Virus record (IMG/VR): IMGVR_UViG_3300033156_001279
Coordinates: 13,069-77,068 of that record
Length of the DNA stretch: 64,000 nucleotides
From: a virus
Taxonomy: Duplodnaviria; Heunggongvirae; Uroviricota; Caudoviricetes
Reading direction: 5' to 3' (one strand)
Shown here: positions 22,046 through 58,734 of the stretch, piece by piece
How positions within the stretch are numbered: position 1 is the first letter of the stretch
Layout of the letters: the number at the start of each line of letters is the position of its first letter
Notes under the pieces: model-generated
Databases searched by the model: none
The model's input: the letters and a program-made list of their open reading frames with translations, nothing else
What the model was told of the DNA's origin: nothing
Translations under genes and position numbers: made by a program

Positions 22046-22046
22046 C

Positions 22047-37321: not shown

Positions 37322-37380
37322 AATAAAGGATATAAACTAAAGGTCGTTTATTAAAAATTAAATAAAATAAAATATAAAAT

Positions 37381-37581
37381 ATGAGTAGAAAATATATTAT
37401 TAAGGATTTAGGCGATGGCTGGTATGATTTTAGTAAAATACCCCAGAATAAAAGCTACATAAAGATTGGTGCGGTGATGTGTAAAAGTCCAGAAAAAGCA
37501 CAAAAACAAGCCCTTCATATTTTAGAGGTCAATGGTTTGATTCCTACCAGTCCTGATGGTGCTGAAGTAATAATAAAATAA
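37381..37581 (+). CDS. hypothetical protein (66 aa)
   Basis: ORF. Confidence 0.35.
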   Translation: MSRKYIIKDLGDGWYDFSKIPQNKSYIKIGAVMCKSPEKAQKQALHILEVNGLIPTSPDGAEVIIK

Positions 37582-37619
37582 TCAAAAAAAAGGTCGTAAG
37601 TAAAAACAAATAATGAAAA

Positions 37620-37937
37620 ATGAATAAAAAAGAATTAGAATTACAACAAAAAGGAGCAGAATTAGTATCCCGGCACATCTTACATAATTTAAGCTTGACA
37701 GCAGAAAAAGAATTAAAAGAAAACCCGGAGTTATTAGATGAGGCGAAAAATTATGATTATGGAGAAAGTGAGATTTACGAGTTTTGGGCGGTTGATGAGT
37801 GGTTAGCGAATAAGTTAGAAAATAAGGGCGAGATAATTTTTAAAATGTTGGATTTTATAGTTTGGGGCAGACAAACAACGGGACAAGCAATCAAAATGGA
37901 TAATGTAATTCAAGAAATAGCAGAAGAAACATTTTAG
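37620..37937 (+). CDS. hypothetical protein (105 aa)
   Basis: ORF. Confidence 0.4.
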   Translation: MNKKELELQQKGAELVSRHILHNLSLTAEKELKENPELLDEAKNYDYGESEIYEFWAVDEWLANKLENKGEIIFKMLDFIVWGRQTTGQAIKMDNVIQEIAEETF

Positions 37938-38032
37938 GTTCTTTACTCCCTCTTGATTATCCAGCAATAGTTAGGAGGGAGAAAAGAGGATAAAATTAAA
38001 AAGGTCGCATATTAAAATTAAAAAACAATAAT

Positions 38033-38206
38033 ATGAAGAAAGGTGATAAGGTTAGGATTTATCAAAAACCAATAACAGAAGAAGATTTTGAGGGAGAAGC
38101 CACCTTAATACGAAAAGATTTAACTGATAAAAAGAACAACTTAGAAGTTTGGTGGGTAAAGTTTAAAGGAGATACCAGAGAGTTTAGAAGAACTATTAAG
38201 GGTTAA
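38033..38206 (+). CDS. hypothetical small protein (57 aa; below ORF-track cutoff)
   Basis: ATG at 38033, 26 nt after AAAGGTCG. Translates MKKGDKVRIYQKPITEEDFEGEATLIRKDL... Confidence 0.3.
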   Translation: MKKGDKVRIYQKPITEEDFEGEATLIRKDLTDKKNNLEVWWVKFKGDTREFRRTIKG

Positions 38207-38301
38207 AAAAGAGGATTTTAGCCCAAAAACAAGCCATTGAGAGGCGTTTTAAGGCGTTTAAAAATAAAAGTAAGGGTATAATACCTTTTTAAAAGAGAAA
38301 A

Positions 38302-38700
38302 TTAAAGAGAACTAATTTGACCTACAGCATCAATAACATATCTTGTTCCGTTCTTTCTTTTATAAATACTTCTATTATCTTTATCAGGTATATCCTCAGG
38401 ATTTTCTGGTTCTGGTCTCGTCTTCCAAGTAGCACCTAAAGAATTGGTTATACCTTCTTTTTCGTGTTCGTATATCACAGCTCTTCTTCCATAAACTTCT
38501 TCACCCTTTACTACTGTATAAGATAATTTGTCCGAGTTATTATTGTCCGCTTTTATCCCGGACACTTGAACTTTATTGTCCGCTTTATTGTCCGCTTTAT
38601 TGTCCGCTTTACGAGAATATGCTTTTCTACACCTATCCGAACAAAACTTAGCATCTTTTCTTTTAGATATAAACTCTTTATTACAATTTAAACATCTCAT
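38302..38700 (-). CDS. zinc-ribbon protein with ADNK tandem repeat
   Basis: MRCLNCNKEF...CSDRC, then ADNKADNKADNK. This is encoded by a 12-bp x3 tandem DNA repeat at ~38565-38610. Lone leftward gene inside the rightward block. Confidence 0.45.
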   Translation of the reverse strand: MRCLNCNKEFISKRKDAKFCSDRCRKAYSRKADNKADNKADNKVQVSGIKADNNNSDKLSYTVVKGEEVYGRRAVIYEHEKEGITNSLGATWKTRPEPENPEDIPDKDNRSIYKRKNGTRYVIDAVGQISSL

Positions 38701-38848
38701 ATCTACATAATTATTTTGCTTATTATGACCTTTTTATTGTTATTCTATTAAGTATAGCAAAAACAAGTTATAAAGTCAAGGGTTCAATAAACTTAATAAG
38801 TAAAAGCCGTATTTTTAAGGGGATTTTATACCTGTGGAAAACTATCTA

Positions 38849-38878
38849 TTGACAAGGGGTTATGAAAAATGCTACAAT
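38849..38878 (+). promoter_or_regulatory. sigma70-type promoter P3: TTGACA-agggg-N-TGC-TACAAT-gg
   Basis: -35 at 38849-38854, 18-nt spacer with extended -10 TGn, -10 TACAAT at 38873-38878. Confidence 0.45.
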
Positions 38879-39051
38879 GGATAGTAGAGAATAGAGCATA
38901 TTATAATTGAAAGTTAGGTTGGCGGTTTTTGAGGATAGAAGACAGGAGAGTTGAAACTCTTAACATATCAAAAAAAAGAAAAGAAAAAAAAGAAAAGAAA
39001 AAAGAAAACCCTCAATAAATTCTAAAACCTTAATAAACTTTAAACCTTAAT

Positions 39052-39309
39052 ATGAAATATAAAGTTATTGTGAATTGTAATTTGGAATATACTTTTGATG
39101 TTGATAGTAGAGAGGAAGCGATTATAGGGGTGGAAAATGTAGAGTTGCCTCCAGAATATGTAGAAGATAGCTTTAAAATTGTTAAGGTAAAGAAAGATAA
39201 AAATTTAGTTTATTGCGAAAATTGCCAGAAAATGACCCCTACCAAACTACATAAGGATAAATATGGAAATGATTATATGACCTGTGTAATATGTAAAGAA
39301 ACTAAATAA
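39052..39309 (+). CDS. small zinc-ribbon protein, member of a YKV...VEAKD.EA family
   Basis: CENCQK...CVICK. The N-terminal MKYKVIVNCNLEYTFDVDSREEAI resembles 42889, 43129 and 44540. Confidence 0.4.
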   Translation: MKYKVIVNCNLEYTFDVDSREEAIIGVENVELPPEYVEDSFKIVKVKKDKNLVYCENCQKMTPTKLHKDKYGNDYMTCVICKETK

Positions 39310-39512
39310 TATGAGAATATACTCCAAAGAGGAGAAAAATAAGATATGGAAAAGAATAGCAGAATTGGAACAAGAAGCGATTGGAAGATATATAGAAGTT
39401 GTGAACTGGGATTATATTGTGAAAATGTTAGATGAAGATAGCCAAAAAGAATTAAAGGAGCTTTATAAAAAGATAAAAAGATTTTAAAAAGGTCAAAAAA
39501 AAAGCTAAAACT

Positions 39513-39716
39513 ATGAGATTAACAAAGAAACAAATTGATGAATTATTAAGTTGTCATATAGGAGTGGGGATAGTAGCTTATAAGAGTGCCGATGACACAA
39601 TAACAAAGTTTGAATTTTATACGGATGATGATAATAAAGTCAGAAAAATAAGTGATTTTAAAACTCCCGAAATAGATTTAAGTAAGGAAGTTAGTAAGAA
39701 TTTATTAAGAGCATAG
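39513..39716 (+). CDS. hypothetical protein (67 aa)
   Basis: ORF. Confidence 0.35.
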   Translation: MRLTKKQIDELLSCHIGVGIVAYKSADDTITKFEFYTDDDNKVRKISDFKTPEIDLSKEVSKNLLRA

Positions 39717-39732
39717 TTTAATAAGCAAAAAA

Positions 39733-39927
39733 ATGAAAACAATAAAACAAGTCCAGAATAAAGCGAAGAGGTTATTAGAAGAATATAAAAAAGAGGAGCC
39801 GAGAGAAGATTTGGTTTCTGTTTATGAGAGAAAATTAGATGATTTTATAGGTGATTTTTGGGATTATAGTTATTTTGAGAGACAAAAATTAAGTGAAATA
39901 AGGGCTGATTTCTTTGATGAATTATAA
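39733..39927 (+). CDS. hypothetical protein (64 aa)
   Basis: ORF. Confidence 0.35.
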   Translation: MKTIKQVQNKAKRLLEEYKKEEPREDLVSVYERKLDDFIGDFWDYSYFERQKLSEIRADFFDEL

Positions 39928-40391
39928 GTGGAATATCTTTGCGGGAAGCCGGTAAGATGGTTTATGGTAAGTGATAAAAAAAGTGTTTAATTTTAGCCGG
40001 TTTGAAGCTCAAAAAATTAAAATTACTTTTTATCAAAACCCATTTACGATTTTATTTGGCTTTCTACAAAGGTATTCTGACTTGCCACCTTTATTCTACC
40101 ATATTTAATTCAAAAAGTCAAAAATATACTTCTTGAACCCAGGTTCAAAAACTATTTTAAAAAGTGAACTTATGTTTCAAAAAATGAAATTAACTATCAG
40201 AAGATATATTAAGAATAGAGAAATTAACTTTAATTGGAAAGGACAACTCTATATTTTAGCTTTCAGAGAGCTAAGGAAACAGGATAGAGGATTTTTCTTT
40301 AGCATTTACAAAATAGAGGGTTTAAAGTATAAAAGAGTTTTTAAGTTCTAAGTTCATTTTAGCAATAATAAAAATAAAGGTCAAGTAAATT

Positions 40392-40640
40392 ATGAAAAAA
40401 GCAAATAAAAAAGAGGTAGATAAAGACATAAAGGAAATTGTAGATAAAATAGCAGAATTGGTAGGTTGTCATATTCAGTTTAACAATTCTCCCTGTAATA
40501 CCTGTTTTCACACTTGGGCTGGTGATATTGGTCTTTCTGACAATATGGCTCATTTATTTTGGCTCGTATTATTGGGGATTAGAGGAGATTATCCAGAAGA
40601 AGAGATTATAGAGGGAATTAAAGAAATGAAACTTTACTAA
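40392..40640 (+). CDS. hypothetical protein (82 aa)
   Basis: ORF 9 nt after AAAGGTCAAG. Confidence 0.35.
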   Translation: MKKANKKEVDKDIKEIVDKIAELVGCHIQFNNSPCNTCFHTWAGDIGLSDNMAHLFWLVLLGIRGDYPEEEIIEGIKEMKLY

Positions 40641-40649
40641 ACTAATAAT

Positions 40650-41306
40650 TTGACTATGGAAAATAAAAAGAAAAAACAAGGAGTATTTTTTAACAAGTTT
40701 AACTTCTTAATACATAATTTTTGCGGTAAGTCCTCCGGAAGACCCGAACTGGGAGGAGTGTTTGTTTCACCTGCTCACACCGTAAGCACAGACAGTTTTA
40801 AGATAATCAAGGTAGACACCCCAAAGGGTTTAGATCCTGATGATTATCCAATTATACCTAATAAACCAAAACCTTTGAATAATTTTAAGAGTTTTATTCT
40901 GCCGAAAGATGAAGCAAAAGAGGTATTAGAAATGTTTAGAAGTCAAAAGAGTTCAAAATCTCTACCTATTTTAGATTATGCCGTGCTTCTAAAAAATGAT
41001 AAGGAAAATGTAGAGATAGGAAAAACCAATTTAGAAAGTTTTAGGAGTGTAAGCAGTAGAAAAATCGTAGGTGAATATCCCAGATACCAAGATTTATTTG
41101 TTGAGAGAGGCAAATATATTGAGATTTCAGTCAATCCCTCGTTTTTAAAAGAGATAGTGAACTTTTATGTCAGTTTTATAGATAAACCCTTAAAAGAATT
41201 AAAGATTAAAGTTCCAATAGAAAAAACTAACCCCATAAGGTTTTATGCTGAACGGCAAGAAGGGCAAAAAGCTGTCGCTTTATTGATGGCTATTGAGGAT
41301 AAATAA
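40650..41306 (+). CDS. hypothetical protein (218 aa)
   Basis: Largest ORF in this part of the early block. No motif recognised. Confidence 0.4.
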   Translation: MTMENKKKKQGVFFNKFNFLIHNFCGKSSGRPELGGVFVSPAHTVSTDSFKIIKVDTPKGLDPDDYPIIPNKPKPLNNFKSFILPKDEAKEVLEMFRSQKSSKSLPILDYAVLLKNDKENVEIGKTNLESFRSVSSRKIVGEYPRYQDLFVERGKYIEISVNPSFLKEIVNFYVSFIDKPLKELKIKVPIEKTNPIRFYAERQEGQKAVALLMAIEDK

Positions 41307-41676
41307 ATTGGTCTTTAATACTTAGACAGACGAAGTAAGCCGGAAAAACCAAGATAAAACTTTAAAACTTCTCTTGGGTCTGTCTAAGTATTAGGGACTA
41401 ATTTAAAGGATTTTCTGAAACTTTTAAAATGCTGATAAGGAAATGATAGAAACGAAATTGTCAATTAAGGATATTGTTTTAGAAACTACCTATCTGAAAT
41501 TGATCCCCTTATGACTTAGAAACCTTATCTGATATTTTTAAAAGTTTTAGTTATATTGCTTATAAAGAAGTTCCTAATGACTTCTAACAAAGTTAGATGA
41601 CTTGATAAGAATAGTTTATCGCCTTAACAATTTGATAGTTAAAAGGAAAGTTCTTTGGTAGTTTCTGCTTTTCCTT

Positions 41677-41937
41677 TTGCTATCCTCAATTATGAAATTC
41701 TTAATCGCTATGTTATTATTTATTCTTCTGTTCTTTACTCTGCTTTTAAGTGCCTATTTTATAGCCAGATATACCAGTATAGCTGGATATATCAAGGCAA
41801 ATAAAGAACTAAAAGAAGAAAATTGGTCTTTGATACAAGACAACAGACAATTGGAACAATTGGTAGATGTTTGTGTTAAAGAATTAAAAGAGTGTAGAAA
41901 AAATTATATTGAAGAATACTTCCAGGAAAATAACTAA
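41677..41937 (+). CDS. small membrane/coiled-coil protein (86 aa)
   Basis: N-terminal hydrophobic helix LIAMLLFILLFFTLLLSAYFIA, then a coiled coil. Confidence 0.35.
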   Translation: MLSSIMKFLIAMLLFILLFFTLLLSAYFIARYTSIAGYIKANKELKEENWSLIQDNRQLEQLVDVCVKELKECRKNYIEEYFQENN

Positions 41938-41952
41938 TTATTTAAAATCTCT

Positions 41953-42872: not shown

Positions 42873-42888
42873 CAAACCAATTGATAAT

Positions 42889-43095
42889 ATGAAAAAATTA
42901 TATCTAATAAACTGCGATGTTCACGATGAATATCCTTATTACACTTTCTTTATTGAAGCCAAAAATGAAATTGAAGCAAATGAAAAAGCGATGAAAATTG
43001 CCAAAAGGGATTATGAAATGGTTGCTTTGAAAGAACCCGAAATATATTCCTATGAAATAAAGAGTTTAGAAGATATTAGAAAAAGGTGTCTTTAA
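42889..43095 (+). CDS. small protein of the Y(K/R)V...EAK.E.EA family
   Basis: MKKLYLINCDVHDEYPYYTFFIEAKNEIEANEKAMKIAKRDY. Confidence 0.35.
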   Translation: MKKLYLINCDVHDEYPYYTFFIEAKNEIEANEKAMKIAKRDYEMVALKEPEIYSYEIKSLEDIRKRCL

Positions 43096-43128
43096 AGGTC
43101 GGTTCTAATCAACTTTAATACTTTAATT

Positions 43129-43365
43129 ATGAAAAAATATAGAGTAAATTTTTATTCCACAAATGCTCAAGTTGAAGCAAAAGATAAGGTTGAAGCAGTC
43201 CGAAAAGCCAAAATATTATTCTATGATGGCGAACTATGTTCTGAAGTAGAAAGTGCTGAAGAAATAGAAGAAGAAAGGTCTTGCCGGAAGTGTGGCAAAA
43301 CTTCTGGATTGCTTGAAGAAGAAGATATTTGTTATACTTGTGCCAAAGAAAGAGGAATTATTTAA
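43129..43365 (+). CDS. small zinc-ribbon protein of the same family
   Basis: MKKYRVNFYSTNAQVEAKDKVEAVRKAKILF... plus CRKCGK...CYTCAK. Confidence 0.35.
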   Translation: MKKYRVNFYSTNAQVEAKDKVEAVRKAKILFYDGELCSEVESAEEIEEERSCRKCGKTSGLLEEEDICYTCAKERGII

Positions 43366-43783: not shown

Positions 43784-43930
43784 ATGAAGTCAGATTATGT
43801 CAAAACTAAATTCTGTAAATCCTGCCCAGTCAAAAATTGTTCTGGGAAAGAGCTTGGCAAATTGGGTTATCCTGTTGTTATCTGTCCTGTCAAAAAAAAG
43901 AAAAAAAAGGTCAAAACCAATTCAAAATAA
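43784..43930 (+). CDS. small Cys-rich basic protein (48 aa; not in ORF track)
   Basis: MKSDYVKTKFCKSCPVKNCSG...VVICPVKKKKKKV. Confidence 0.3.
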   Translation: MKSDYVKTKFCKSCPVKNCSGKELGKLGYPVVICPVKKKKKKVKTNSK

Positions 43931-43936: not shown

Positions 43937-44110
43937 ATGAGAAGTCGTCAAAATGGCAATCACAAAATTTTAGAAATCTATCTTAGTGATTTAAAAAAGG
44001 AAGCACAGAAAGAAGTATTAGATTTATATCAATTGAAAGAAGACAACTACGATATAGCTCCGTTGTTTGTATTAGAAAATGAAACAAAAAAACAAAGAAT
44101 ATCCAAATAA
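43937..44110 (+). CDS. hypothetical small protein (57 aa; not in ORF track)
   Basis: ATG 24 nt after AAAGGTCA. Confidence 0.3.
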   Translation: MRSRQNGNHKILEIYLSDLKKEAQKEVLDLYQLKEDNYDIAPLFVLENETKKQRISK

Positions 44111-44525
44111 ACTGAGATGTAAAATCTGTGGCAAAGAGTTTGAGCATTTGGGTTCTCATATTTGGCACAAACACAAAATACCTGTTCGTGAATATAAGGA
44201 GAGATTTGAATTACCGTATAATGAAGCCCTGATTTCAGAAGAAATTTATTATAAGAAAAAGAAGCATTGGGAAAGCAGGAGAGATTATTATCTTAAAAAT
44301 TTAAGGAGAGGAAAAAAATATCAGTTTAAGAAAGGGCATAGAGGTCAGAGAAGAATATCAGCAAGCGAAAGAAAACGACTTATTAAGAGAATACTTGAAG
44401 TTAACAAAAAAAGAAAGTTGGAAAAATGCCCTATTTGTAATCTAAAATTTTATTGTTTGGATGCTCATCTTTTTAAAAAACATCAATTCTTGAGAGTTCC
44501 TAAAATCAAAAAGGTCGCAAAATAA
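44079..44525 (+). CDS. C2H2-like zinc-finger protein (two CxxC...HxxxH units), basic
   Basis: CKICGKEFEHLGSHIWHKH and CPICNLKFYCLDAHLFKKH. Confidence 0.35.
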   Translation: MKQKNKEYPNKLRCKICGKEFEHLGSHIWHKHKIPVREYKERFELPYNEALISEEIYYKKKKHWESRRDYYLKNLRRGKKYQFKKGHRGQRRISASERKRLIKRILEVNKKRKLEKCPICNLKFYCLDAHLFKKHQFLRVPKIKKVAK

Positions 44526-44863: not shown

Positions 44864-44896
44864 AAAGGTCGGAAAATTATTAACCTAAAGAAAAAT

Positions 44897-45617: not shown

Positions 45618-45818
45618 ATGGAAAAACCCTTCTTATATTGTCCTCATTGTAAAAAATATCCCAATAAGATTAAAGAAATAATTCAGAATAAGGAAAGCAT
45701 CCTGCGAAATTGGAATAGTCAGGAATATGAAAAGGTCGGGAGTTCTTCTAAATCTTCAATAAAAGCATTTTGCCCTCATTGCGGAACAGAATTAAGAATT
45801 AAAGGTCAAATTAAATAA
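45618..45818 (+). CDS. small zinc-ribbon protein
   Basis: CPHCKK...CPHCGTE. Confidence 0.35.
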   Translation: MEKPFLYCPHCKKYPNKIKEIIQNKESILRNWNSQEYEKVGSSSKSSIKAFCPHCGTELRIKGQIK

Positions 45819-45836: not shown

Positions 45837-46100
45837 ATGACTGATGAAATAAAAATCACAGAAGAAAAAATCAAAGAAATTTTGAAAGAGAAACTACCAA
45901 AATGGTTTGAAGAACAATTATCTGCTGATTATTCAAATCCATTAAAAGATGCTATTGAAGCGGAGATTAAGGAACAGGAAGGAGTTATTAAAAAACTGGT
46001 TAAAGAAATCCTTTCCAGTGTGGTAGAAGACCCGAAATTCAAAGAAGAAATTGGAAAAGAAGTGATAGGGAGAATTATCTCTAAAGGATTGAATAACTAA
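45837..46100 (+). CDS. hypothetical protein (87 aa)
   Basis: ORF. Confidence 0.35.
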   Translation: MTDEIKITEEKIKEILKEKLPKWFEEQLSADYSNPLKDAIEAEIKEQEGVIKKLVKEILSSVVEDPKFKEEIGKEVIGRIISKGLNN

Positions 46101-46128
46101 AGGTCAAAAAACAAAATAACTTAAAATT

Positions 46129-46385: not shown

Positions 46386-46405
46386 TTTTGAACCTGGGTT
46401 CAAAA
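46386..46405. repeat. 20-bp perfect palindrome TTTTGAACC-TGG-GGTTCAAAA
   Basis: Seen directly. Other copies lie at 2766-2779 (one mismatch), 40133-40148, 50258-50271, 52395-52410 and 54746-54759. Confidence 0.8.
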
Positions 46406-46408: not shown

Positions 46409-46437
46409 TTGACACAAGTTTTTCAGTTTGATAAAAT
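46409..46437 (+). promoter_or_regulatory. sigma70-type promoter P7: TTGACA-N17-TAAAAT-gg, firing into a non-coding region
   Basis: -35 at 46409-46414, -10 at 46432-46437. Confidence 0.4.
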
Positions 46438-46443
46438 GGAATA

Positions 46444-46570
46444 ATACCTGCTCGGTCTTAATATTTATACCCGCCCGAGACCGAGCAGGTTAAGGAGGTT
46501 TTATCATAAACATTAGGAAATGAACCCAACTATGCAAAACAAAATCCCAGCATTTGCTGAGGTTTTTTTG
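46444..46570 (+). ncRNA. candidate small RNA (~125 nt): P7 promoter, 12-bp-stem hairpin, then terminator-like hairpin with T7 tract
   Basis: CCTGCTCGGTCT(46447-46458)...AGACCGAGCAGG(46478-46489), then CAGCatttGCTG followed by TTTTTTT (46549-46570). The only reading frame inside is a 17-codon one whose SD is 21 nt from the ATG. Confidence 0.35.
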
Positions 46571-46652: not shown

Positions 46653-46683
46653 GGAGAATTAAAAACTCTCCTCTTTTCTTTTA
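46653..46683 (+). terminator. hairpin GGAGA-attaaaaac-TCTCC followed by a T-rich tract
   Basis: Seen directly. Sits at the convergence point of the rightward block and the leftward genes 46681-47974. Confidence 0.3.
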
Positions 46684-47106
46684 TAGTATCTCTTGTCTTT
46701 GTTCTAACATAATCTTCTTAGATATTTTTTCTAATGGAGTCGGAAAAATATTGTGAGCTCTCCGATAATCATCAATTTGCATAAGTTCTTTATCAGTGCA
46801 AAGCTCACAATCTTGTGGAATATAAGTTGTTAGAAAACCAATTTTAACCTTCTTTCCTTTTCCTACTCCTTCAGTTCCTAAATTACAATAAGTATTGTTT
46901 TGCGAATAAATTCTATCCCAATCTCGGTAGCTTACTAATTTCTTTACAAAAACTGGCTCTATTGATTTGGATTTTGGAACTGTTCTTTCTCTGAAATCTT
47001 TAATTCCTTGTTTTGCTTTGGGACTATTTTTCAGCATCTCCTGAAAACTTAAATACCCAAAACCTCCTTTTGATTCCGATGTTTTTGAAATCTGTTCAAA
47101 TGTCAT
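46681..47106 (-). CDS. hypothetical protein (141 aa)
   Basis: ORF co-oriented with the Rep-like gene and downstream of it. Confidence 0.35.
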   Translation of the reverse strand: MTFEQISKTSESKGGFGYLSFQEMLKNSPKAKQGIKDFRERTVPKSKSIEPVFVKKLVSYRDWDRIYSQNNTYCNLGTEGVGKGKKVKIGFLTTYIPQDCELCTDKELMQIDDYRRAHNIFPTPLEKISKKIMLEQRQEIL

Positions 47107-47119: not shown

Positions 47120-47974
47120 TTAATAATTATTTCGACCTTTATTATTAAATGGCTCTAATTCATCAAGATTCTCATCAATAAATTTATGAATTGTTTCTAA
47201 TTTCCACGGAAAGTTTACATTGTCGCACAACCAATCCATCACAGCTACTATTTCCTCATCTGGATAACCAATAAGAGCTTTTGCTGGTCTTAACTCTCTT
47301 TTAAGAGCGGCTTGATATTGTTGCTGATTAGCAAACTGAAAATTTTTATATTCCCAATAAAGAGCAATAATTTGGATATGTCTCTTTTTATCTTTTTTCA
47401 TTTCTTCTAATTTAGATTTAAAAGAAAATTCTTTGAGTTGTGACTTAGTCGCAACATTCCTTTCTTTTGTGTTTCCTTTCTTTTGTGTTTCCTTACTATT
47501 AGAAGTAAAACTGTTTAACCCGTGATGTAAAACTCTTATACTCGTGAGTTTTAACTCTTTTACATCACCTTTGTAAGTGTTGTAAAACTCTTTTACTTCA
47601 CTTTCGCTCATATTTTTGAATTTCTTTTTAAGTTCTTTCAGTTCGCTAAAATCAGTTCTCCAATGTTTTTTACCCAAAAGCCAATATCTATTCGTGCATT
47701 GTTTTCCTATTCTCTTTTGTTTTATGAGTCCGAAATATCTTAAAACTTTAATCCCTTCATTGACTGTTGCTCTACTTAATGCTAATTCTTCAGCAATCTT
47801 TTTTTGAGCAGGAAATGCCTTTTGATTTTTATCAGCATATCTACATAAACTAATATAAATCATTGAGAAAGTAGTTCCCAAAATTCGAGCGTACCCATTA
47901 AGAAACTTATCATCAGTCCAATACCAACCCTTAGGTCTCATATCTCTCACTTCAAATTGTTCTTTTTCCTCCAT
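47120..47974 (-). CDS. HTH replication-initiator / replisome-organizer-like protein
   Basis: The N-terminal ...ISLCRYADKNQKAFPAQKKIAEELALSRATVNEGIKVLRYFGLI resembles the winged-HTH of plasmid/phage Rep (DnaD/RepA_N-like) proteins. Adjacent to inverted repeats at 48041-48115. Confidence 0.45.
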   Translation of the reverse strand: MEEKEQFEVRDMRPKGWYWTDDKFLNGYARILGTTFSMIYISLCRYADKNQKAFPAQKKIAEELALSRATVNEGIKVLRYFGLIKQKRIGKQCTNRYWLLGKKHWRTDFSELKELKKKFKNMSESEVKEFYNTYKGDVKELKLTSIRVLHHGLNSFTSNSKETQKKGNTKERNVATKSQLKEFSFKSKLEEMKKDKKRHIQIIALYWEYKNFQFANQQQYQAALKRELRPAKALIGYPDEEIVAVMDWLCDNVNFPWKLETIHKFIDENLDELEPFNNKGRNNY

Positions 47975-48308: not shown

Positions 48309-48347
48309 TGTCAAGAGTTGACAAGGGTGTTCTAAAAATGATATAAT
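48309..48347 (+). promoter_or_regulatory. sigma70-type promoter P4 (TTGACA-aggg-N-TATAAT-gg) with overlapping palindrome TGTCAA-gag-TTGACA
   Basis: -35 at 48318-48323, 18-nt spacer, -10 TATAAT at 48342-48347, ATG at 48354. The palindrome 48309-48323 covers the -35 and is a candidate operator. Confidence 0.45.
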
Positions 48348-48353: not shown

Positions 48354-49175
48354 ATGGGCAGGAGGCAAAAATTATTTAAACCAATTACAGATGAAAGTTC
48401 TGCCTCTCAATATATGGGTATTAAAGAATTTAAAAATAAAATAATATGTGGAGATTGCTTAAAGATTTTACCAAAGATTCCTGATAATTCTGTTGATTTG
48501 ATAATAACTGATCCGCCTTATAATATAAGCCAAAAAGGTAAAAGTATATCAAGAAAATCAATGAGAGCAACTTCAATGAAGAGAAATATGGATATCAAAT
48601 TGGATTTTGGAGATTGGGATCATATGTCAGAAAAAAATTTTAAGAAATTTACAGAAGAATGGTTTAAAGAGTGTGCAAGAATTCTAAAACCGAAGAGTTG
48701 GATCTATGTATTTTTTAGTAAGGAGAGAATTGGATATTTAGCGATGAATTTAGATTTGAAATATGGTTTGAAGACAAGAACTATATTTACTTGGGTAAAG
48801 AAAAACCCAGCACCTCAATTTAAAAAAGTCAATTGGATTTCCGCAACAGAATTTATTTGGGTAGGAAGTAAAGGAGCAAGTAAATTGAAAAACTATGGTT
48901 ATGTTAAAGATATGTATAATTGGTATATGACTTGTAATAAATCCATTTATGGTAAAACAGAGCATCCAACAGAAAAACCAGTTGAATTGGTAGAACATTT
49001 CATAAGATATAACTCCAATGAAAATGATATAGTTCTTGATCCTTTTCTTGGTTCGGGCACTACAGCAGTTGCATGCAAAAGATTAAGAAGAAATTATTTA
49101 GGAATCGAAAAAAATAAGAAGTATTGTAGAATAGCGAAACAAAGAATTGATGCTCAAACTCTGCCTCTCTTTTAA
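48354..49175 (+). CDS. beta-class DNA methyltransferase (DPPY; N6-adenine or N4-cytosine)
   Basis: Motif IV LIITDPPYN precedes motif I FLGSGTTAVAC, which is the beta-class order. Confidence 0.7.
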   Translation: MGRRQKLFKPITDESSASQYMGIKEFKNKIICGDCLKILPKIPDNSVDLIITDPPYNISQKGKSISRKSMRATSMKRNMDIKLDFGDWDHMSEKNFKKFTEEWFKECARILKPKSWIYVFFSKERIGYLAMNLDLKYGLKTRTIFTWVKKNPAPQFKKVNWISATEFIWVGSKGASKLKNYGYVKDMYNWYMTCNKSIYGKTEHPTEKPVELVEHFIRYNSNENDIVLDPFLGSGTTAVACKRLRRNYLGIEKNKKYCRIAKQRIDAQTLPLF

Positions 49176-50256: not shown

Positions 50257-50916
50257 ATGAACCCAGGTTCAAATGCGAATAAGAAAAAGATAATCCTTGA
50301 CTTATGTGGGGGAACAGGAGCTTGGAGCAGACCCTACAAAGAAGCAGGATATGATGTGAGGAATATAACCTTACCTGATTATGATGTTAGAACTTATAAG
50401 CCACCTAAAAACGTTTATGGGATATTGGCTGCTCCGCCCTGTGTGCAATTCAGTTTTGCTAAAACTACTGGTAAACCTAGAAACTTGAGAAAAGGAATGG
50501 AAATAGTTATTGCTTGTTTAAAAATAATTTGGGAATGTCAATATGATTTAAAGAGTCCTTATGCAAAAGAAACTACACTAAAGTTTTGGGCATTAGAAAA
50601 CCCTAGTGGATTACTCAAAAGATTTCTTGGAAAGCCAGTCTTTGAATTCTGCCCTTATGATTTTGGTGATGAATATCAAAAACATACTTCTTTGTGGGGT
50701 TATTTCAATATTCCGAAAAAAAAACCAACAAAATTGTCTAAAAGATTAAAAGAATTATCTAAAACTCATAGTCAACCTTTAGCAAAATATATGAAATTTG
50801 ACAGATTAAAAACGAGAGAGATACATCCAGAATATTATGGAAAATTAACACGAGCAGAAAGAAGGGCTATAACTCCATCTGGTTTTGCTGAGGCATTTTT
50901 TCAGGCTAATAAATAA
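50257..50916 (+). CDS. minimal C5-cytosine methyltransferase-like protein (motifs I, IV, VI only)
   Basis: ILDLCGGTGAWS (motif I-like), AAPPCVQFSFAKTTG (PC motif IV), FWALENPSG (ENV-like motif VI). 219 aa with no recognisable target-recognition domain. The ATG is immediately followed by the TGAACCCAGGTTCA palindrome. Confidence 0.45.
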   Translation: MNPGSNANKKKIILDLCGGTGAWSRPYKEAGYDVRNITLPDYDVRTYKPPKNVYGILAAPPCVQFSFAKTTGKPRNLRKGMEIVIACLKIIWECQYDLKSPYAKETTLKFWALENPSGLLKRFLGKPVFEFCPYDFGDEYQKHTSLWGYFNIPKKKPTKLSKRLKELSKTHSQPLAKYMKFDRLKTREIHPEYYGKLTRAERRAITPSGFAEAFFQANK

Positions 50917-52395: not shown

Positions 52396-52410
52396 TGAAC
52401 CTGGGTTCAA

Positions 52411-52542: not shown

Positions 52543-53004
52543 CTAACTTTGCTTATTTAAGACCTCCAAAATCTTTTTAACAGATTCTCCACCTTCTAAT
52601 GTGACCGAATATTTTTCCTGATATATCGATTTCAATTTATTCAGTTCAATCTCATCATTTCTAATCTCGGAATTTAACTCTTTTATATTTCTAACAGAAG
52701 GCTCATTTTTTTTATATTCCTTTTCCAATTGTTCAGTTAATTTCTTAATCCTTTCACTAATAGAAAAGATAGCCCCTTTCAAAATAATCTTATTGGGCAA
52801 AGAAATAAATTCTTTGTTGACAAAAGTAATTGCTTTCTTGATGGTCTTTTTAGAAAAGCCATAATCTTTTTCCAATTGCCAAATGGGCTTCTTCCTGAAG
52901 AAATGGTCAGACCAAATTTTGATATATCTTTCTTGGATTTCCTCATCCTCTTTTGCTGAAGGTCTTCCTGGATGAGTCCTATTTTTTTCGTTAGCTATTG
53001 ACAT
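52543..53004 (-). CDS. terS: terminase small subunit (putative, HTH)
   Basis: 153 aa immediately upstream of terL. HTH-like KKPIWQLEKDYGFSKKTIKKAITFV. C-terminal coiled coil. Confidence 0.4.
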   Translation of the reverse strand: MSIANEKNRTHPGRPSAKEDEEIQERYIKIWSDHFFRKKPIWQLEKDYGFSKKTIKKAITFVNKEFISLPNKIILKGAIFSISERIKKLTEQLEKEYKKNEPSVRNIKELNSEIRNDEIELNKLKSIYQEKYSVTLEGGESVKKILEVLNKQS

Positions 53005-53027
53005 AACTTTAGATAAAATGCTATAAT
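52998..53027 (+). promoter_or_regulatory. sigma70-type promoter P5: TTGACA-N18(TGC)-TATAAT-gg
   Basis: -35 at 52998-53003, overlapping the terS start codon on the other strand. -10 at 53022-53027. Confidence 0.45.
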
Positions 53028-53046: not shown

Positions 53047-53322
53047 ATGAATATGGAAAACTTTAAAACTAAGGATTTCCCATTATCGGCCTTTCTTATT
53101 GCTAAAGGTTTTAGATTGCTTGATATTGAGAATCATTCCAAAAGAAAAACCTTTGTTTTTGAATCCAATCCTGAGATTAACAGATTAGCTCAGGCTTTTT
53201 ATTTTGATAAGAATAATTCCAAAAATCTGCAAGTGGATGCCAGAGAATTTATTAGAGCTGAAAGAGAACTGAAAACCAAGCTGTATTCCACTTACTTTGA
53301 TATTAAGACTAAAAGAGACTAA
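53047..53322 (+). CDS. hypothetical protein (91 aa)
   Basis: ORF 20 nt after P5. Confidence 0.4.
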   Translation: MNMENFKTKDFPLSAFLIAKGFRLLDIENHSKRKTFVFESNPEINRLAQAFYFDKNNSKNLQVDAREFIRAERELKTKLYSTYFDIKTKRD

Positions 53323-53377
53323 GGTCAAGTCCAATGGCTAGAAAAGAAAAGATAAAAAAATAAAAATATAAGAATTT

Positions 53378-53902: not shown

Positions 53903-53912
53903 ACTCAGTATA

Positions 53913-54455: not shown

Positions 54456-54748
54456 AAACGCTAAATGACATTTTAAAAGAGTATTATAGAAGATTTACTC
54501 ACGATTGGCCTCCCGAATGGTATACAAAGGAAGAGGCTAAAAATCATCCGATAGAAGCGGGAAAATTTCTTACCAAAGAAATAACCGAATTACTAGAAGA
54601 ATTAGTTGGAAAAGAACGAAAACTTCCTAAAAATGCAAAAATGCTTTTTAGCAATGAAGAATTGAAAAAAGAAAAATTAAGAAATTATGGTTCTAATTTA
54701 AGACGTCAATACCTTAAAACCCAAATTAAAGAAATATTAAAGAAATGA
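54452..54748 (+). CDS. hypothetical protein (98 aa)
   Basis: ATG at 54452 coupled to the upstream stop. The TGA stop is part of the 54746-54759 palindrome. Confidence 0.35.
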   Translation: MKTLNDILKEYYRRFTHDWPPEWYTKEEAKNHPIEAGKFLTKEITELLEELVGKERKLPKNAKMLFSNEELKKEKLRNYGSNLRRQYLKTQIKEILKK

Positions 54749-54841
54749 ACCCAGGTTCAAATTATGTTTTATAAAAATTTATCTAAAAAAGGTTTAAATA
54801 AATTAGGTTCTCATTATAAATAACTGAATCCGATATAAAAT

Positions 54842-55231
54842 ATGTTTAATAAAGAAAAATCATTTGTTAAATATCTAGAGAAACTCATACTTAAATACTC
54901 TCCATTATTAGGAGTGGATTCTTATTGGATTTTGGTTGATTCGAGAGCAAGCATTGCTGATGATCCCCGGACTGGTTTTCAAATAGAAATATTATATCCG
55001 TATAAACGAGCATTTTTGCATTGGACAGAAAAGGCACTGAATAAATACCAAAAAAAGAATTTCAAGCAACTTGAACAAGCAGTAATTCATGAACTTTGTC
55101 ATATTCCAGTTGCAGGATTGAAAGAAATAACTAAAGAACGTTATATCAGCGAGAGAGAAGTCAGTGAAAAAACTGAACATTTAATTGATCATTTTGCTAA
55201 TGTATTCTTTAAGTTAATAAATAAAGGTTGA
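54842..55231 (+). CDS. HExxH metallopeptidase-like (SprT/Wss1-like) small protein
   Basis: AVIHELCHIPVAG contains HELCH, an HExxH motif. 129 aa. Confidence 0.3.
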   Translation: MFNKEKSFVKYLEKLILKYSPLLGVDSYWILVDSRASIADDPRTGFQIEILYPYKRAFLHWTEKALNKYQKKNFKQLEQAVIHELCHIPVAGLKEITKERYISEREVSEKTEHLIDHFANVFFKLINKG

Positions 55232-55256
55232 CAATAGGACAGTTTAATATCTTAAT
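55228..55256 (+). promoter_or_regulatory. weak promoter-like TTGACA-N17-CTTAAT-ggg
   Basis: -35 is perfect. -10 is poor. Confidence 0.2.
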
Positions 55257-55325
55257 GGGTGCAATCACGGAATTAGTCAAATTCGAAAAAAAATAACTGA
55301 TAATAGGTCATAAAATAATATTAAG

Positions 55326-56258
55326 ATGAAGAAACCAAAGCAAAAATCTAAAAATAATCCTCTACTAAAACTAGAGAATTGGATAAGAAAGACATACAAA
55401 GCAACTCCAAAAGATAAGTTATATCTTAAAGTTGCTAATCTTATAAAAAGTTCGAATTCTTCGGAAAGATATTTCTCGCTTTCTGAACACGAATATATTA
55501 TCGAGAATAGGGATTGGGACTATTATTTTATTGTGCCCGAAAGTGCTTTCAAAGATAAAGAGGAGATGAAAGTTACAAAAATCAAATGTAAAAACCTAAT
55601 CCGAGAAGTGATAGAATTTCCTTCTAAGTTGGTATTTTCTTTAATGGACCAATCATATTCACCATTGGGAACCGATGGTTTTTGGAAGTATAGTGAGAAA
55701 TGGGATGATGAAACTTTTGAATTTAAGCCCAGAATAGCAATTAATAAGAGTGGCAAATTAATCGGAGGTGATGGCAAACCCCTATTTGGATTTCATTTTA
55801 GTTCACCTAGAGGAAGAATTTACAAAAACATACTTTTTACTGATTTAACAAAAGCTAGTCTGAAAAGAGCAAAAATTCTATTACTTAAACAGAATTTAAT
55901 TCCTCTAAAAGAATTCAAGAAACAAAAATTTCTATTAGTAGTTTCACCAGAAATAGAATTTAAGGCAAAAGAAATAGAACATGAACTTATGAAAGAAAAA
56001 CATCCAGACGATCTTTTAGTAACCCCTTATCTGAAAAAACTTAATTGGGCAATAATCTTAGAATCTCCTGCCAAGCCCTTGATTTTTCAACTCAGGTCAG
56101 AACCAGATTTCTGTGTAAATGTTAAAAGACTTTTTGCAGAGGAGTTTGAAAAGAAGACAGTAATAGATTCTAATATGAGATGCAATGCGGGAATTGGAGA
56201 CTGGAAGAAAATAGTTGGTTCATTCAAGAAGGAAGTTGAAAATGAAATATTTAATTAA
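55326..56258 (+). CDS. hypothetical protein (310 aa)
   Basis: ORF. Confidence 0.4.
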   Translation: MKKPKQKSKNNPLLKLENWIRKTYKATPKDKLYLKVANLIKSSNSSERYFSLSEHEYIIENRDWDYYFIVPESAFKDKEEMKVTKIKCKNLIREVIEFPSKLVFSLMDQSYSPLGTDGFWKYSEKWDDETFEFKPRIAINKSGKLIGGDGKPLFGFHFSSPRGRIYKNILFTDLTKASLKRAKILLLKQNLIPLKEFKKQKFLLVVSPEIEFKAKEIEHELMKEKHPDDLLVTPYLKKLNWAIILESPAKPLIFQLRSEPDFCVNVKRLFAEEFEKKTVIDSNMRCNAGIGDWKKIVGSFKKEVENEIFN

Positions 56259-56291
56259 ATTTATCAAAAACTAAATTAAAAGGAAATCAGT

Positions 56292-56621
56292 TTGGTGAAA
56301 ACTAAGAAATGTAAAAAATGTAACAAGCCAGCCAAATCCCGTGGTTTGTGTAATACTCACTATTATCAGTGGTGGTCTAAACATATGTATGAGAAAAATA
56401 TGAAAAAAAAGAAAACAAAGAAAAAAAAGGATAAATGGAATATTAATTTGTTTAAAGTGAGAAATGCAGAATATACAGTAGAGAACTTTAAAATGGAATT
56501 TGGTTTTCCTGATTTAGATGACTTAAATATAAAAGACCCAAAAGAATTATTATTAGAACCATTGATAGAACTTAAAAGATTTAGTATTGATATTAAAATT
56601 AAAAAGAAAAAATCTAGGTAA
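56292..56621 (+). CDS. small Cys-rich basic protein (CKKCNK...GLCNTHY)
   Basis: ORF. The N-terminal Cys/His cluster could be HNH-like or a zinc ribbon. Confidence 0.3.
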   Translation: MVKTKKCKKCNKPAKSRGLCNTHYYQWWSKHMYEKNMKKKKTKKKKDKWNINLFKVRNAEYTVENFKMEFGFPDLDDLNIKDPKELLLEPLIELKRFSIDIKIKKKKSR

Positions 56622-56643
56622 TCAAAATAAAGGTAAAATAAAA

Positions 56644-57021
56644 ATGATAGACAGAAGAAAAATAGGTAAACAAAATAAAAGGAAAGGAGCATTAGCAGAA
56701 ACTGAATCAGCTAAGTTTTGGAGCAAGAAACTAAATTCAAATATTAGGCGTACTCCACGTTCTGGAGCTTTCATAGATTGGCCAGGAGATTTAATTGATT
56801 TAGGAAATTCCATTTTAAAAGATTTTATAGTAGATATTAAAAGCGGAAAAACTGCGGTTCCCAAAAAATTAGAAAGGGAAATGAATAAATTAAAGGATGA
56901 AGCACAAGGCAAATTATATTTTCTTGAACTTTCAAAACCTTGGGGCGAAAATTACATAATAATAAATAGAAAACATTTTGGAAGATTACTTTATGAATTA
57001 CAAAACTACAGAAAAAAATAA
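56644..57021 (+). CDS. PD-(D/E)xK nuclease, Holliday-junction-resolvase-like
   Basis: GALAETES...PGDLIDLGNS...IVDIKSGK gives an E...D...D-x-K layout. The start is placed at ATG 56644 after AAAGG; the ORF track extends upstream. Confidence 0.4.
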   Translation: MIDRRKIGKQNKRKGALAETESAKFWSKKLNSNIRRTPRSGAFIDWPGDLIDLGNSILKDFIVDIKSGKTAVPKKLEREMNKLKDEAQGKLYFLELSKPWGENYIIINRKHFGRLLYELQNYRKK

Positions 57022-57022
57022 T

Positions 57023-57238
57023 ATGCTGTTTTCTTACACTATTTTTTTCTTTGCTACATTTATTCCTATTAGTATAATCTTAAAATATGTTTTTCATGCT
57101 GGAATTGACACCTACCTTTTAGTAGCTATTTTTGCTAGCGGGGCAGCAATCTTGAATTCACTCGAGATTCGACTTAAATCATATCTTAAAATTATTTTAC
57201 GGACATTATCTCAATTTTCTGAAAAAAAAAGACAATAA
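57023..57238 (+). CDS. small integral membrane protein
   Basis: Two hydrophobic helices (FFFATFIPISIIL..., LLVAIFASGAAIL). Confidence 0.3.
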   Translation: MLFSYTIFFFATFIPISIILKYVFHAGIDTYLLVAIFASGAAILNSLEIRLKSYLKIILRTLSQFSEKKRQ

Positions 57239-57274
57239 ATAAAGGTCGAAAATGAAAATTAAATAAAAAAAAAT

Positions 57275-57640
57275 ATGCTTAAAATAACAATTAAAAAAGA
57301 AGGTTTTCCCAGAGAAGTGGAAATAGAAGGAAGTACAGAAGAGATTACTAAAGTTCTCAGAGGTCTTTATTATCGGGAATACAAGACAGGTGCTTATCCA
57401 AGAGAAAAAATGAAGACGAAAGGGAATTGTATTATCTGTGGAAATCCCCTGCCTGCAGGAAAAATAAAATACTGTTCTGAGGCTTGCTATAAAAAGGGAA
57501 TGAAAAAGATTTACGAAAGGTATAAAAAAAGAAGAGAAATGGAAAGAAAAAGAAAAGAAAAGGAAAGCTTAAATGAAAATAAGCTTGGAGAAGTAAACTC
57601 TAAGTTGGATGAAAGAAATACAACAGATACAACCTGGTAA
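57275..57640 (+). CDS. zinc-ribbon protein with basic coiled-coil tail
   Basis: CIICGNPL...CSEAC. Confidence 0.35.
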   Translation: MLKITIKKEGFPREVEIEGSTEEITKVLRGLYYREYKTGAYPREKMKTKGNCIICGNPLPAGKIKYCSEACYKKGMKKIYERYKKRREMERKRKEKESLNENKLGEVNSKLDERNTTDTTW

Positions 57641-57692
57641 TTATGCAGAAATTAAAGGTCGAATAAAACAAAAAAATTAAATAAAAAAAATT

Positions 57693-58520
57693 ATGAAAAT
57701 GTTTAATTATGTGACGGAAAGAGACGAAAATGGAATTCAAAGGTTGAGATGGGGAAAACTAATTGGTCACTTAGTTTTACTAATGGTCTTAATCGTGTTG
57801 TTCTTTGGTGCGTGGGGCACTATCGGTGCTGGCGAAAGAGGAGTATTACTCCAGTTTGGTGCTGTTCAGGATAAGATTTTCGATGAAGGATTTTATCTCA
57901 AGATTCCTTTTGTCCAGTCAGTAAGAAAAGTAGATGTCAAAATCCAAAAAGACGAGGTATCCGCCAGTGCTGCTTCTAAAGACTTACAGATAGTCACTTC
58001 TACAATTGCTTTAAATTACCATATTGATCCAAACTCAGTTAACAGATTATGGCAAGAAGTGGGAGTAAACTATAATGCAAGAATTATAGCACCAGCTATT
58101 CAAGAAGCAATGAAAGCGACAACAGCTCAATACACAGCCGAAGAACTGATTACCCGCAGAGAGGAAGTAAAAGAAGCCACAAAGATGAACTTAACGGAAA
58201 GATTATCGGATAGAGGAATTATGGTGGATGAATTCAATATTATTGACTTTGATTTCTCAAAGGCATTTAATGAAGCAATTGAAGCTAAAATCACCGCCGA
58301 ACAATTGAAATTAAAAGCTGACAGAGATTTAGAAAGAATCAAGATTGAGAAAGAGCAGATGATAACAGCGGCACAGGGCAAAGCAAAAGCTATTAAAATA
58401 GAAGCTGAAGCATTAATGTCAAATCCTAAAGTTGTCGAGCTTCGGTATATTGAAAAATGGGATGGAAAAATGCCCCAATTCTGGGGCGGTGCTACACCCT
58501 TTGTGGGTATTGACAAATAA
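57693..58520 (+). CDS. SPFH/band-7 (prohibitin/HflKC-like) membrane protein
   Basis: TM helix, then GAGERGVLLQFGAVQDKIFDEGFYLKIPFVQSVRKVDVKIQ...NYHIDP, which is the canonical SPFH core. Coiled-coil tail. Confidence 0.6.
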   Translation: MKMFNYVTERDENGIQRLRWGKLIGHLVLLMVLIVLFFGAWGTIGAGERGVLLQFGAVQDKIFDEGFYLKIPFVQSVRKVDVKIQKDEVSASAASKDLQIVTSTIALNYHIDPNSVNRLWQEVGVNYNARIIAPAIQEAMKATTAQYTAEELITRREEVKEATKMNLTERLSDRGIMVDEFNIIDFDFSKAFNEAIEAKITAEQLKLKADRDLERIKIEKEQMITAAQGKAKAIKIEAEALMSNPKVVELRYIEKWDGKMPQFWGGATPFVGIDK

Positions 58521-58521
58521 C

Positions 58522-58704
58522 ATGAGGAAAGCTTTTACTTTAGTCGAATTATTGATTATAATTGCCATAATTGGAATTTTGGCAACTATTATTATAACTA
58601 CTGTAATAGAGGTAAGAAAGAATGAAGGCAATTGCCAAGAAGTCAGAGAACAATGTGTTTCTGAATGTTTTAAACAGGAAGAAAAATGTCTAATTAAGAA
58701 TTAA
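58522..58704 (+). CDS. type IV pilin/pseudopilin-like protein (class III signal peptide)
   Basis: MRKAFTLVELLIIIAIIGILATII matches the prepilin [KR]-[GA]-F-T-L-[IV]-E leader and hydrophobic helix. The start is at the ATG one nt after the SPFH stop. Confidence 0.5.
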   Translation: MRKAFTLVELLIIIAIIGILATIIITTVIEVRKNEGNCQEVREQCVSECFKQEEKCLIKN

Positions 58705-58734
58705 AGGTCGAATAAACCAACTAAAAATAAAATC

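Follow-up and report, generated by a model that had tools for sequence, protein, structure and literature searches.

An AAAGGTC element preceding start codons in a family of uncultured tailed phages

What kind of signal is the heptamer AAAGGTC that recurs in front of start codons in the DNA of an uncultured tailed phage? The stretch analyzed here (64,000 nt, positions 13,069 to 77,068 of IMG/VR record IMGVR_UViG_3300033156_001279, in the following referred to as the window) represents a part of this phage and has a GC content of about 32%. It covers most of one genome, as a protein identical to one of the window is recorded on a JGI contig of 77,068 bp. In a preliminary description, the heptamer had been regarded as a gene-expression signal of early genes, with a phage-specific promoter, an mRNA processing site and a binding site shared with a nearby GGTC repeat array as candidates. 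The reading as a gene-expression signal is supported by the present analysis and the first two candidates remain leading after testing, whereas the third is not supported. In its extended form W-AAAGGTC-R, the element is a genuine and conserved signal of gene starts, specific to a single phage family, and most likely a new representative of a type of gene-expression signal already known from phages. Tentatively, and with less than even confidence, sequence comparison leads us to favor a cistron-start signal of this family that would act in the mRNA rather than as a promoter.

The AAAGGTC element upstream of start codons

On both strands of the window together, AAAGGTC occurs 29 times, compared to 12.17 ± 3.23 copies in dinucleotide-shuffled sequences, and none of 100 shuffles reached the observed number. 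The expectation amounts to about one copy per 10 kb per strand and not to one in 20 kb as initially estimated. Likewise, when inspecting the 60 nt that precede each of the 92 called genes on the sense strand, AAAGGTC turned out to be the most enriched 7-mer, being present in front of 21 genes versus 1.1 expected, as the enrichment proposed in the preliminary description would have it. Hence, 21 of the 29 copies are positioned upstream of genes and eight elsewhere. Without exception, the 21 upstream sites are oriented in gene sense, irrespective of the strand. Five of them reside on the minus strand and precede minus-strand genes, three of these in the structural module, which contradicts the restriction to early genes of the plus strand assumed before. 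Usage is modular, with dense occurrence at 36–46.4 kb and 57–58.9 kb and only sparse representation in the structural operon.

The heptamer is required exactly, as none of its one-mismatch variants is enriched upstream of the called genes. Consequently, a link with the GGTC array at 35705–35850 is not supported, since at least two mismatches separate its units from a motif not even tolerating a single one. For defining the element beyond its core, the AAAGGTC sites of the window and of related phages were combined to a non-redundant set of 58. In this set, only the nine positions of W-AAAGGTC-R are conserved, no matter whether the motif or the ATG serves as anchor of the alignment, with a purine directly following the motif C at 52 of the 58 sites. 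The subsequent leader is A-rich, G-poor and devoid of a Shine-Dalgarno (SD) sequence.

Taking the number of nucleotides between the motif C and the ATG as spacing, the plus-strand sites are found at 35923–35929 (42 nt to ATG 35972), 36380–36386 (48 nt to ATG 36435 and directly 3′ of an 11-bp hairpin), 37339–37345 (35 nt to ATG 37381), 37589–37595 (24 nt to ATG 37620), 38000–38006 (26 nt to ATG 38033), 39488–39494 (18 nt to ATG 39513) and, as an outlier, 40376–40382 (9 nt to ATG 40392). Further downstream, the site at 43094–43100 overlaps the upstream TAA stop (28 nt to ATG 43129), while those at 43906–43912 (24 nt to ATG 43937), 44510–44516 (23 nt to ATG 44540) and 45801–45807 (29 nt to ATG 45837) are situated within the end of the upstream open reading frame (ORF). 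The series is continued at 44864–44870 (26 nt to ATG 44897), 46099–46105 (overlapping a TAA stop, 23 nt to ATG 46129), 57241–57247 (27 nt to ATG 57275), 57654–57660 (32 nt to ATG 57693 of an SPFH/Band 7 gene) and 58703–58709 (overlapping a TAA stop, 25 nt to ATG 58735). On the minus strand, the site at 47134–47140 lies within the end of the replication-initiator-like gene, 27 nt from the ATG of gene 46681–47106, and the one at 38727–38733 is found 26 nt in front of the lone minus-strand gene 38302–38700. In the structural operon, sites are present at 24655–24661 (30 nt to the ATG of 24124–24624, the minus-strand gene preceding the major capsid gene), at 9569–9575 (abutting the stop of a gene for a 982-aa protein, 25 nt to the ATG of 9385–9543) and at 6855–6861 (28 nt to the ATG of the tail gene 5729–6826). 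Most of the plus-strand sites had already been listed in the preliminary description, with position 44509 in place of 44510, but the copy at 45801 and all five minus-strand copies had been missed.

The distance to the start codon is thus constrained and not variable between 14 and 45 nt as previously assumed. In the window, 16 of the 21 sites show a spacing of 23–32 nt, and among the 58 sites the mode is 23 nt with 45 values falling between 20 and 30 nt. The distribution rises sharply at 21–23 nt and has a tail to the right. The overlap with the preceding stop codon noticed earlier is real but secondary, as five sites within the end of the upstream ORF still keep 23–29 nt to the next ATG. Hence, the position of the motif is set by the downstream ATG and not by the upstream stop, and its frequent overlap with TAA stops reflects tight gene packing.

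With this spacing, the conclusion already drawn that the motif is not a Shine-Dalgarno sequence holds. A direct ribosome-binding signal pairing with 16S rRNA in an SD-like manner might be considered in view of roughly one motif per cistron, of the AAGG or AGGT within the motif, which could pair with part of the generic anti-SD, and of two leaders showing AAAGGAGGT about 20–22 nt before the ATG. However, 21–30 nt are far outside the SD range of about 4–12 nt, whole operons do without the motif and GGTC is not complementary to the generic anti-SD, although the host 16S rRNA may differ. Moreover, only 6 of the 92 called genes possess any SD core within 20 nt of the start, the general start context being A at −3 and T at −1. 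An SD-like function therefore appears highly improbable. A similar arrangement is known from Cluster K mycobacteriophages, where the start-associated sequence (SAS), a conserved asymmetric 13-bp motif with unproven function, is located upstream of many starts. The SAS resembles AAAGGTC in being an asymmetric motif just upstream of many starts in one phage group. It contains, however, the SD sequence and is placed 3–8 bp from the start codon, while AAAGGTC is found at 21–30 nt in a phage hardly using SD sequences.

Strand and spacing also bear on a purely compositional enrichment and on primase- or Chi-like sites tied to replication direction. The latter could be suspected from the motif changing strand near 35.6 kb, where the GC skew and the direction of the genes change as well, and from the GGTC core, which resembles the T7 primase recognition sequence. 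Yet both minus-strand genes embedded in the right arm are preceded by minus-strand copies (38727–38733 and 47134–47140), demonstrating that the motif follows genes and not replication arms. Neither chance nor replication direction explains the fixed ATG spacing, and chance is additionally at odds with the shuffling result. Both are refuted by the strand and spacing data and keep next to no probability.

The eight copies outside the upstream class comprise sense copies within ORFs at 1402, 3846, 26747, 27196, 43274 and 45731, an antisense copy at 14846 and the one at 35568. The copy at 45731, formerly counted as a gene-start site, is consequently an ordinary in-ORF copy, as is 43274. The copy at 35568 and the variant at 53320 (TAAGGTCAA), both formerly listed as motif copies, are better read in reverse complement as TTGACC −35 boxes of leftward promoters, and at the orthologous position of the related locus L029 (5179), a copy likewise provides a TTGACC −35 on the other strand. 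As a general explanation, however, antisense −35 use was rejected because it accounts for only a few AAAGGTCAA copies.

Relatives, host-type promoters and a sister-clade hairpin

Related phages were recovered via the portal protein, in IMG/VR and JGI metagenomes, and via homologs of early proteins. The same heptamer is used in the same way in phages with a portal 50–65% identical or an early NTPase 49–68% identical to that of the window. Motif and spacing are kept in these relatives (L010, L013, L029, L032, and L034), while the spacer sequences between motif and ATG are not conserved. In front of the orthologous gene starting at 43129 in the window and at about 3637 in L032, for example, the motif is retained but the spacer differs in sequence and length (28 versus 22 nt). 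In L032 (GC content 27%), 12 of 13 AAAGGTC copies are positioned 17–27 nt before an ATG, with 23 nt being the commonest value, and genes lacking the motif overlap or abut the preceding gene. In contrast, the more distant phage L035, having one gene in common, shows strong AGGAGG SD sequences and no use of AAAGGTC. Relatives among cultured phages were not found by DNA comparison, and cultured-phage searches with the portal, terminase-like and capsid proteins gave distant matches only. String searches of the literature for the AAAGGTC motif merely returned unrelated primers and cos sites.

Near-consensus extended −10 promoters of the type TTGAC-N15-19-TGnTAnnnT are present 11 times in the window versus 0.77 expected, on the plus strand at 35872–35900, 36934–36962, 38849–38878, 46409–46437, 48318–48347, 52998–53027 and 59654–59683, and on the minus strand at 38779–38751, 40121–40093, 40384–40356 and 48314–48285. 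Every operon head examined shows a near-consensus host-type promoter, and a weaker leftward promoter (TTGACC-N18-TATTAT) faces the structural operon. Operons of the relatives are headed by the same promoter type. Accordingly, host RNA polymerase can account for all transcription units seen, and an extra promoter class is not required. Three of the extended −10 promoters are followed by an ATG after 6–19 nt (e.g., TATAAT-N6-ATG at 48354), implying leaderless transcripts or very short leaders. Several of them have AAAATGCTATAATGGAG in common together with a G-rich spacer start (TTGACAGGGGTC...), and several early promoters show AGGGGTC at the −35-proximal end of the spacer.

In four host-type promoters, AAAGGTC follows the −10 after 5, 9, 17, and 22 nt, thus forming part of the first cistron's leader, with the usual spacing to the ATG. 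Among these are the sigma70-type promoter at 35872–35900, with the site at 35923–35929 located 22 nt past the −10, and the promoter TTGACT-N17-TATACT at 38779–38751, with the site at 38727–38733 found 17 nt past the −10. At 40376–40382, the reverse complement of the motif doubles as the TTGACC −35 of the minus-strand promoter at 40384–40356. Copies at about +1 to +16 of four host-type promoters occupy a classic operator position, which is compatible with a stoperator-like DNA site where a monomeric phage protein would bind asymmetric AAAGGTCR at promoters and in short intergenic spaces and block initiation or elongation in an orientation-dependent manner, as does the repressor of mycobacteriophage L5. 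The corresponding sites of L5 (Cluster A) are asymmetric, occur more than 20 times per genome in promoter regions and short intergenic spaces, and show an orientation that correlates strikingly with the direction of transcription (PMC9283540). In asymmetry, copy number, location and transcription-linked orientation, AAAGGTC matches these traits. Additionally, a copy is found just upstream of the −35 in three relatives, the AGGGGTC of the early promoters is suggestive, and the window (44079–44525) codes for a zinc-finger protein of the Ros/MucR type, for which L029 shows a weak match as well. However, the L5 sites are 13-mers bound by the immunity repressor of a temperate phage, whereas AAAGGTC has nine informative positions; inspection of the window and the related loci revealed neither an integrase nor an immunity or CI-type repressor, and there is no sign of a temperate phage. 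An information content of about 15 bits would be low for a protein required to bind DNA specifically against the background of a bacterial genome, and the density in L032 is far above that in L5. Furthermore, a roadblock on DNA gives no reason for the constrained ATG spacing with its sharp minimum at 21–23 nt. Judged from these sequence features, a stoperator-like role is rather unlikely.

A somewhat better, but still doubtful, candidate is a phage-specific promoter consisting of a single element. Here, a phage polymerase or sigma-like factor would read AAAGGTCR and start a few nucleotides downstream, resulting in leaders of about 15–20 nt and, alongside the host-type promoters, in enhanced or re-timed expression of single genes. 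An example of this kind is the late promoter of T4, TATAAATA, being recognized with the help of the sigma-like factor gp55, lacking a −35 and directing initiation 6–7 nt downstream of the element. Like it and the promoters of the phiEco32 and 7-11 sigma factors, AAAGGTC is a compact, nearly invariant element without −35 that is present in many copies some tens of nt ahead of start codons, strictly in gene orientation (21 of 21 sites with the exact 7-mer). Promoters specific to a phage are, moreover, generally well conserved and predictable from its genome sequence (PMC4331800). A start site followed by a minimal leader would agree with the sharp lower limit of the ATG distance, and the purine after the C at 52 of 58 sites is consistent with a promoter as well. 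Antisense in-ORF copies are mildly depleted (2 versus 4.6–7 expected), and module-specific use, in L013 and L006 even with two motif classes in different blocks, resembles temporal classes.

On the other hand, promoters of the T4 late and phage-sigma type are AT-rich and −10-like, while AAAGGTC has a GGTC-containing core and its nine conserved positions include neither an AT-rich −10-like element nor a partner. Inspection of the 58 sites revealed no −35 or −10 partner at preferred spacing from motif or ATG, and TAnnnT or TAAATA hexamers did not show any preferred spacing from the motif when compared with shuffled leaders. With nothing conserved beyond W-AAAGGTC-R, a sigma70-type, bipartite or MotA-box-like promoter was rejected. 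Promoters of T7-type single-subunit polymerases, having about 20 conserved bp from −17 to +6, are not resembled by an element of nine positions, and a gene for such a polymerase was not found in the window. A gp55-like or other sigma gene was not found here, and no Pfam family of sigma factors or RNA polymerases was found in the window or in the related sequence covered (L029 and L036; 37 kb of a related 76.8-kb genome), although small factors could escape this search. In addition, sites are found inside operons already headed by host-type promoters, at a density reaching one per gene and, in L032, 12 in 6.5 kb, which would be extreme for promoters. Finally, none of the 12 tRNA genes in L030 is preceded by the motif. 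Besides the 12 tRNAs, this locus encodes RtcB RNA ligase (16373–19621 and 2157–3380). In the window, tRNA genes were not found.

A sister clade employs another element at the equivalent position. In L001, L003, L006, L007, L013, and L017, the strict sequence (GAGAT)ATTCTGGAACTYRA is located 18–37 nt before start codons and represents the 3′ arm of a two-part RNA hairpin (e.g., L006:1698–1783, minus strand). In the consensus fold of this TCTGGAAC hairpin, 18 base pairs are predicted, seven of them with compensatory changes, and a U·G pair is invariant, from which it follows that the structure is selected in the sense-strand RNA. The hairpin may be an RNase III-type processing site. The two classes can coexist, as L013 has the hairpin in the block beside the strand switch and AAAGGTC in the next block, while in L006 the early side shows the hairpin and the structural module AAAGGTCG. 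The window and L032 possess AAAGGTC only, and L035 neither of the two. Three ATTCTGGAACTYRA copies lack the 5′ arm; 16–17 nt before them, TTGACA or TTGTCA is found and TATTCT could serve as −10.

Level of action of the element

The sister-clade hairpin is, above all, what leads us to favor recognition of W-AAAGGTC-R at the RNA level, together with the use of roughly one motif per cistron, its retention in promoter-proximal leaders and the sufficiency of host-type promoters. Further points counted in this direction are the strict sequence, the gene-sense orientation, the ATG-set position, the lack of −35 or −10 partners, the scarcity of SD sequences and the tRNA-gene absence. Host RNA polymerase would start at the consensus-type promoters of the operon heads and produce long polycistronic transcripts, exposing single-stranded AAAGGUCR before each cistron that is not translationally coupled. 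A sequence-specific factor, probably a phage-encoded endoribonuclease or RNA-binding protein, would recognize the motif, possibly aided by the A-rich 3′ context in the way RegB is aided by S1. This recognition would fix or mark the 5′ boundary of an unstructured, A-rich and SD-less leader of about 20–25 nt from which the ribosome could start. In this scheme, we infer the recognition on RNA, the cleavage or binding event and the type of protein involved.

Precedents for short sense-strand signals in intergenic regions of polycistronic phage transcripts are the RNase III sites of T7, which are found between the early genes with one ahead of the first early gene, and the RegB sites of T4. The long hairpin of the sister clade resembles the former, as TCTGGAAC forms the long imperfect double-stranded stem typical of them. 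The AAAGGTC element does not, since no consistent RNA structure is predicted around it and the window contains no match to an Rfam family at gathering score. Strong RegB sites have the consensus GG*AGRAYARAA, are intergenic and possess a G-containing core for which an A-rich 3′ context matters, and not every copy is used (PMC3014915). AAAGGUCR shows a comparable layout, with a short single-stranded core and an unstructured, A-rich and G-poor leader as 3′ side, but differs in sequence. In contrast to RegB cleaving within the SD, cleavage about 23 nt before the ATG would create a leader and not inactivate one. T4 also possesses the regB gene, while a regB-like gene was not identified in the window or in 37 kb of the related 76.8-kb genome.

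Several observations weigh against an action in the mRNA. Among the proteins of the window, no nuclease or RNA-binding protein for the motif was identified, and a RegB- or barnase-like match was not found. Sense copies within ORFs are not avoided but amount to 26 versus 14–16 expected, a count inflated by orthologous copies in several loci, whereas a nuclease reading the bare heptamer would be expected to select against them; by analogy with RegB, context may rescue such copies from cleavage. AAAGGTC is absent from whole operons (48.3–50.9 kb and 59.7–64 kb), including the methyltransferase operon, and is, hence, not needed for translation in general. Its use in particular modules is in line with temporal classes and, thus, with the usual behavior of promoters. 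Moreover, in L002, L006, and L017 the motif is positioned 5 nt upstream of a TTTACA-N17-TATAAT promoter and, consequently, outside the transcript from that promoter.

As a quite unlikely variant, AAAGGUCR could be a leader tag that primary as well as processed phage mRNAs would carry close to their 5′ end, to be read by a phage factor or the ribosome about 23–30 nt upstream of the AUG. It might serve SD-independent translation or protect phage messages in an SD-poor host. If true, it would add a novel type to the translation or mRNA-selection signals of bacteria, and in function it would be closer to leader sequences found in eukaryotic viruses than to any known phage signal.

Host, further elements and implications

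Besides portal and tape-measure protein, a Mu gpT-type major capsid protein and a terminase-like ATPase, the window encodes three DNA methyltransferases and a DnaD/HTH_36 replication initiator. Three homologs (P0022, P0264, and P0303) carry labels of archaeal metagenome-assembled genomes (Hodarchaeales, Woesearchaeota, and Nanoarchaeia), and the archaea-labeled contig L034 uses AAAGGTC. However, an archaeal host was rejected in view of the 11 consensus bacterial promoters, the DnaB- and DnaG-type genes of L031 (DnaB-like helicase and DnaG zinc ribbon) and the murein-lysis genes of the related genome L036, encoding a holin, an SLT lytic transglycosylase and a peptidoglycan-binding domain. On the same evidence, an archaeal TATA/BRE reading, placing the motif center near −27 of leaderless ATGs, was set aside. 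The sequence features indicate a bacterial host with murein, canonical promoters and hardly any SD use, and the archaeal labels probably stem from AT-rich phage contigs binned with AT-rich archaeal genomes. Bacteroidota-type promoters were not clearly enriched in the window, with matches mostly inside genes.

At the switch of GC skew and coding strand, the repeat array at 35706–35843 consists of TTTATTTGGTCCGGT (2.5 copies), CTGGTC (six copies) and TCTCCGG (seven copies), and may represent origin iterons or a cluster of TGGTC sites such as those recognized by T7-type primases. In L029, GGTC is part of a dissimilar array (GGTCTGAACTTN, about 13 copies), which is situated elsewhere and inside an ORF. 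The palindrome GAAGATGTTATCTTC (within CAAGATAACATCTTC) precedes the first two genes of the leftward operon, at 35520–35540 and upstream of 34490 (minus strand), and may be a regulator site for this operon. Another palindrome, (TT)GAACC(YR)GGTTC(AA), is present in six exact copies (2767–2778, 40135–40146, 46390–46401, 50259–50270, 52397–52408, and 54747–54758) versus 0.79 expected even when allowing one mismatch. It is found at or just before gene starts, such as those of the terminase-like gene, a methyltransferase gene and the gene after the tape measure, as well as before the portal gene of L029, and may be the site of a dimeric regulator or a small hairpin. In runs of small genes where AAAGGTC is absent (62245–63785 in the window and 14340–20470 in L029), a second junction, (C)TAAATAAACCT, directly precedes the ATG and looks like a translational-coupling junction. 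In the region 46409–46570, an extended −10 promoter is succeeded by a long hairpin (about 46448–46490), AAGGAGGT, an ORF of 17 codons and a further hairpin that resembles a terminator and has a T run, an arrangement possibly representing a small RNA or leader peptide unit.

Beside the portal gene, a minus-strand gene (27122–31828), conserved in L029, encodes a 1568-aa protein with metallo-beta-lactamase, ATP-dependent DNA ligase and LigD 3′-phosphoesterase domains, and the gene position suggests that this protein may be packaged in the virion. Inside the structural region, the minus-strand block 12576–23081 comprises about 11 genes for sugar-nucleotide synthesis and glycosyl transfer, among them those for UDP-glucose dehydrogenase, GDP-mannose dehydratase/epimerase, glycosyltransferases, a cytidylyltransferase and an RGP-like protein; those starting at 22045 and 23030 are two of the six called genes with an SD core within 20 nt. 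In a 209-aa early protein, a PD-(D/E)XK-like D...ExK motif was recognized by eye, on account of which its reading as a transcription factor was dropped, and a clamp-like reading of 40656–41306 was abandoned as it found no support in the PDB. In the relatives, an IS605 OrfB/TnpB element is present in L036, and several homologs of the terminase-like protein contain inteins.

W-AAAGGTC-R represents a regulatory code common to an uncultured family of phages of about 77 kb with nearly SD-less genes, spread over dozens of metagenome contigs. Since it marks true gene starts, the motif aids annotation, and it provides a sequence handle for finding further relatives. It raises the question of how tightly packed SD-less cistrons are individually expressed. 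If it acts as a promoter, the motif would point to an unrecognized phage transcription factor. If it acts on RNA, as tentatively favored here, two interchangeable punctuation systems, one being a linear heptamer and the other a hairpin, could be compared within this family as a natural pair.

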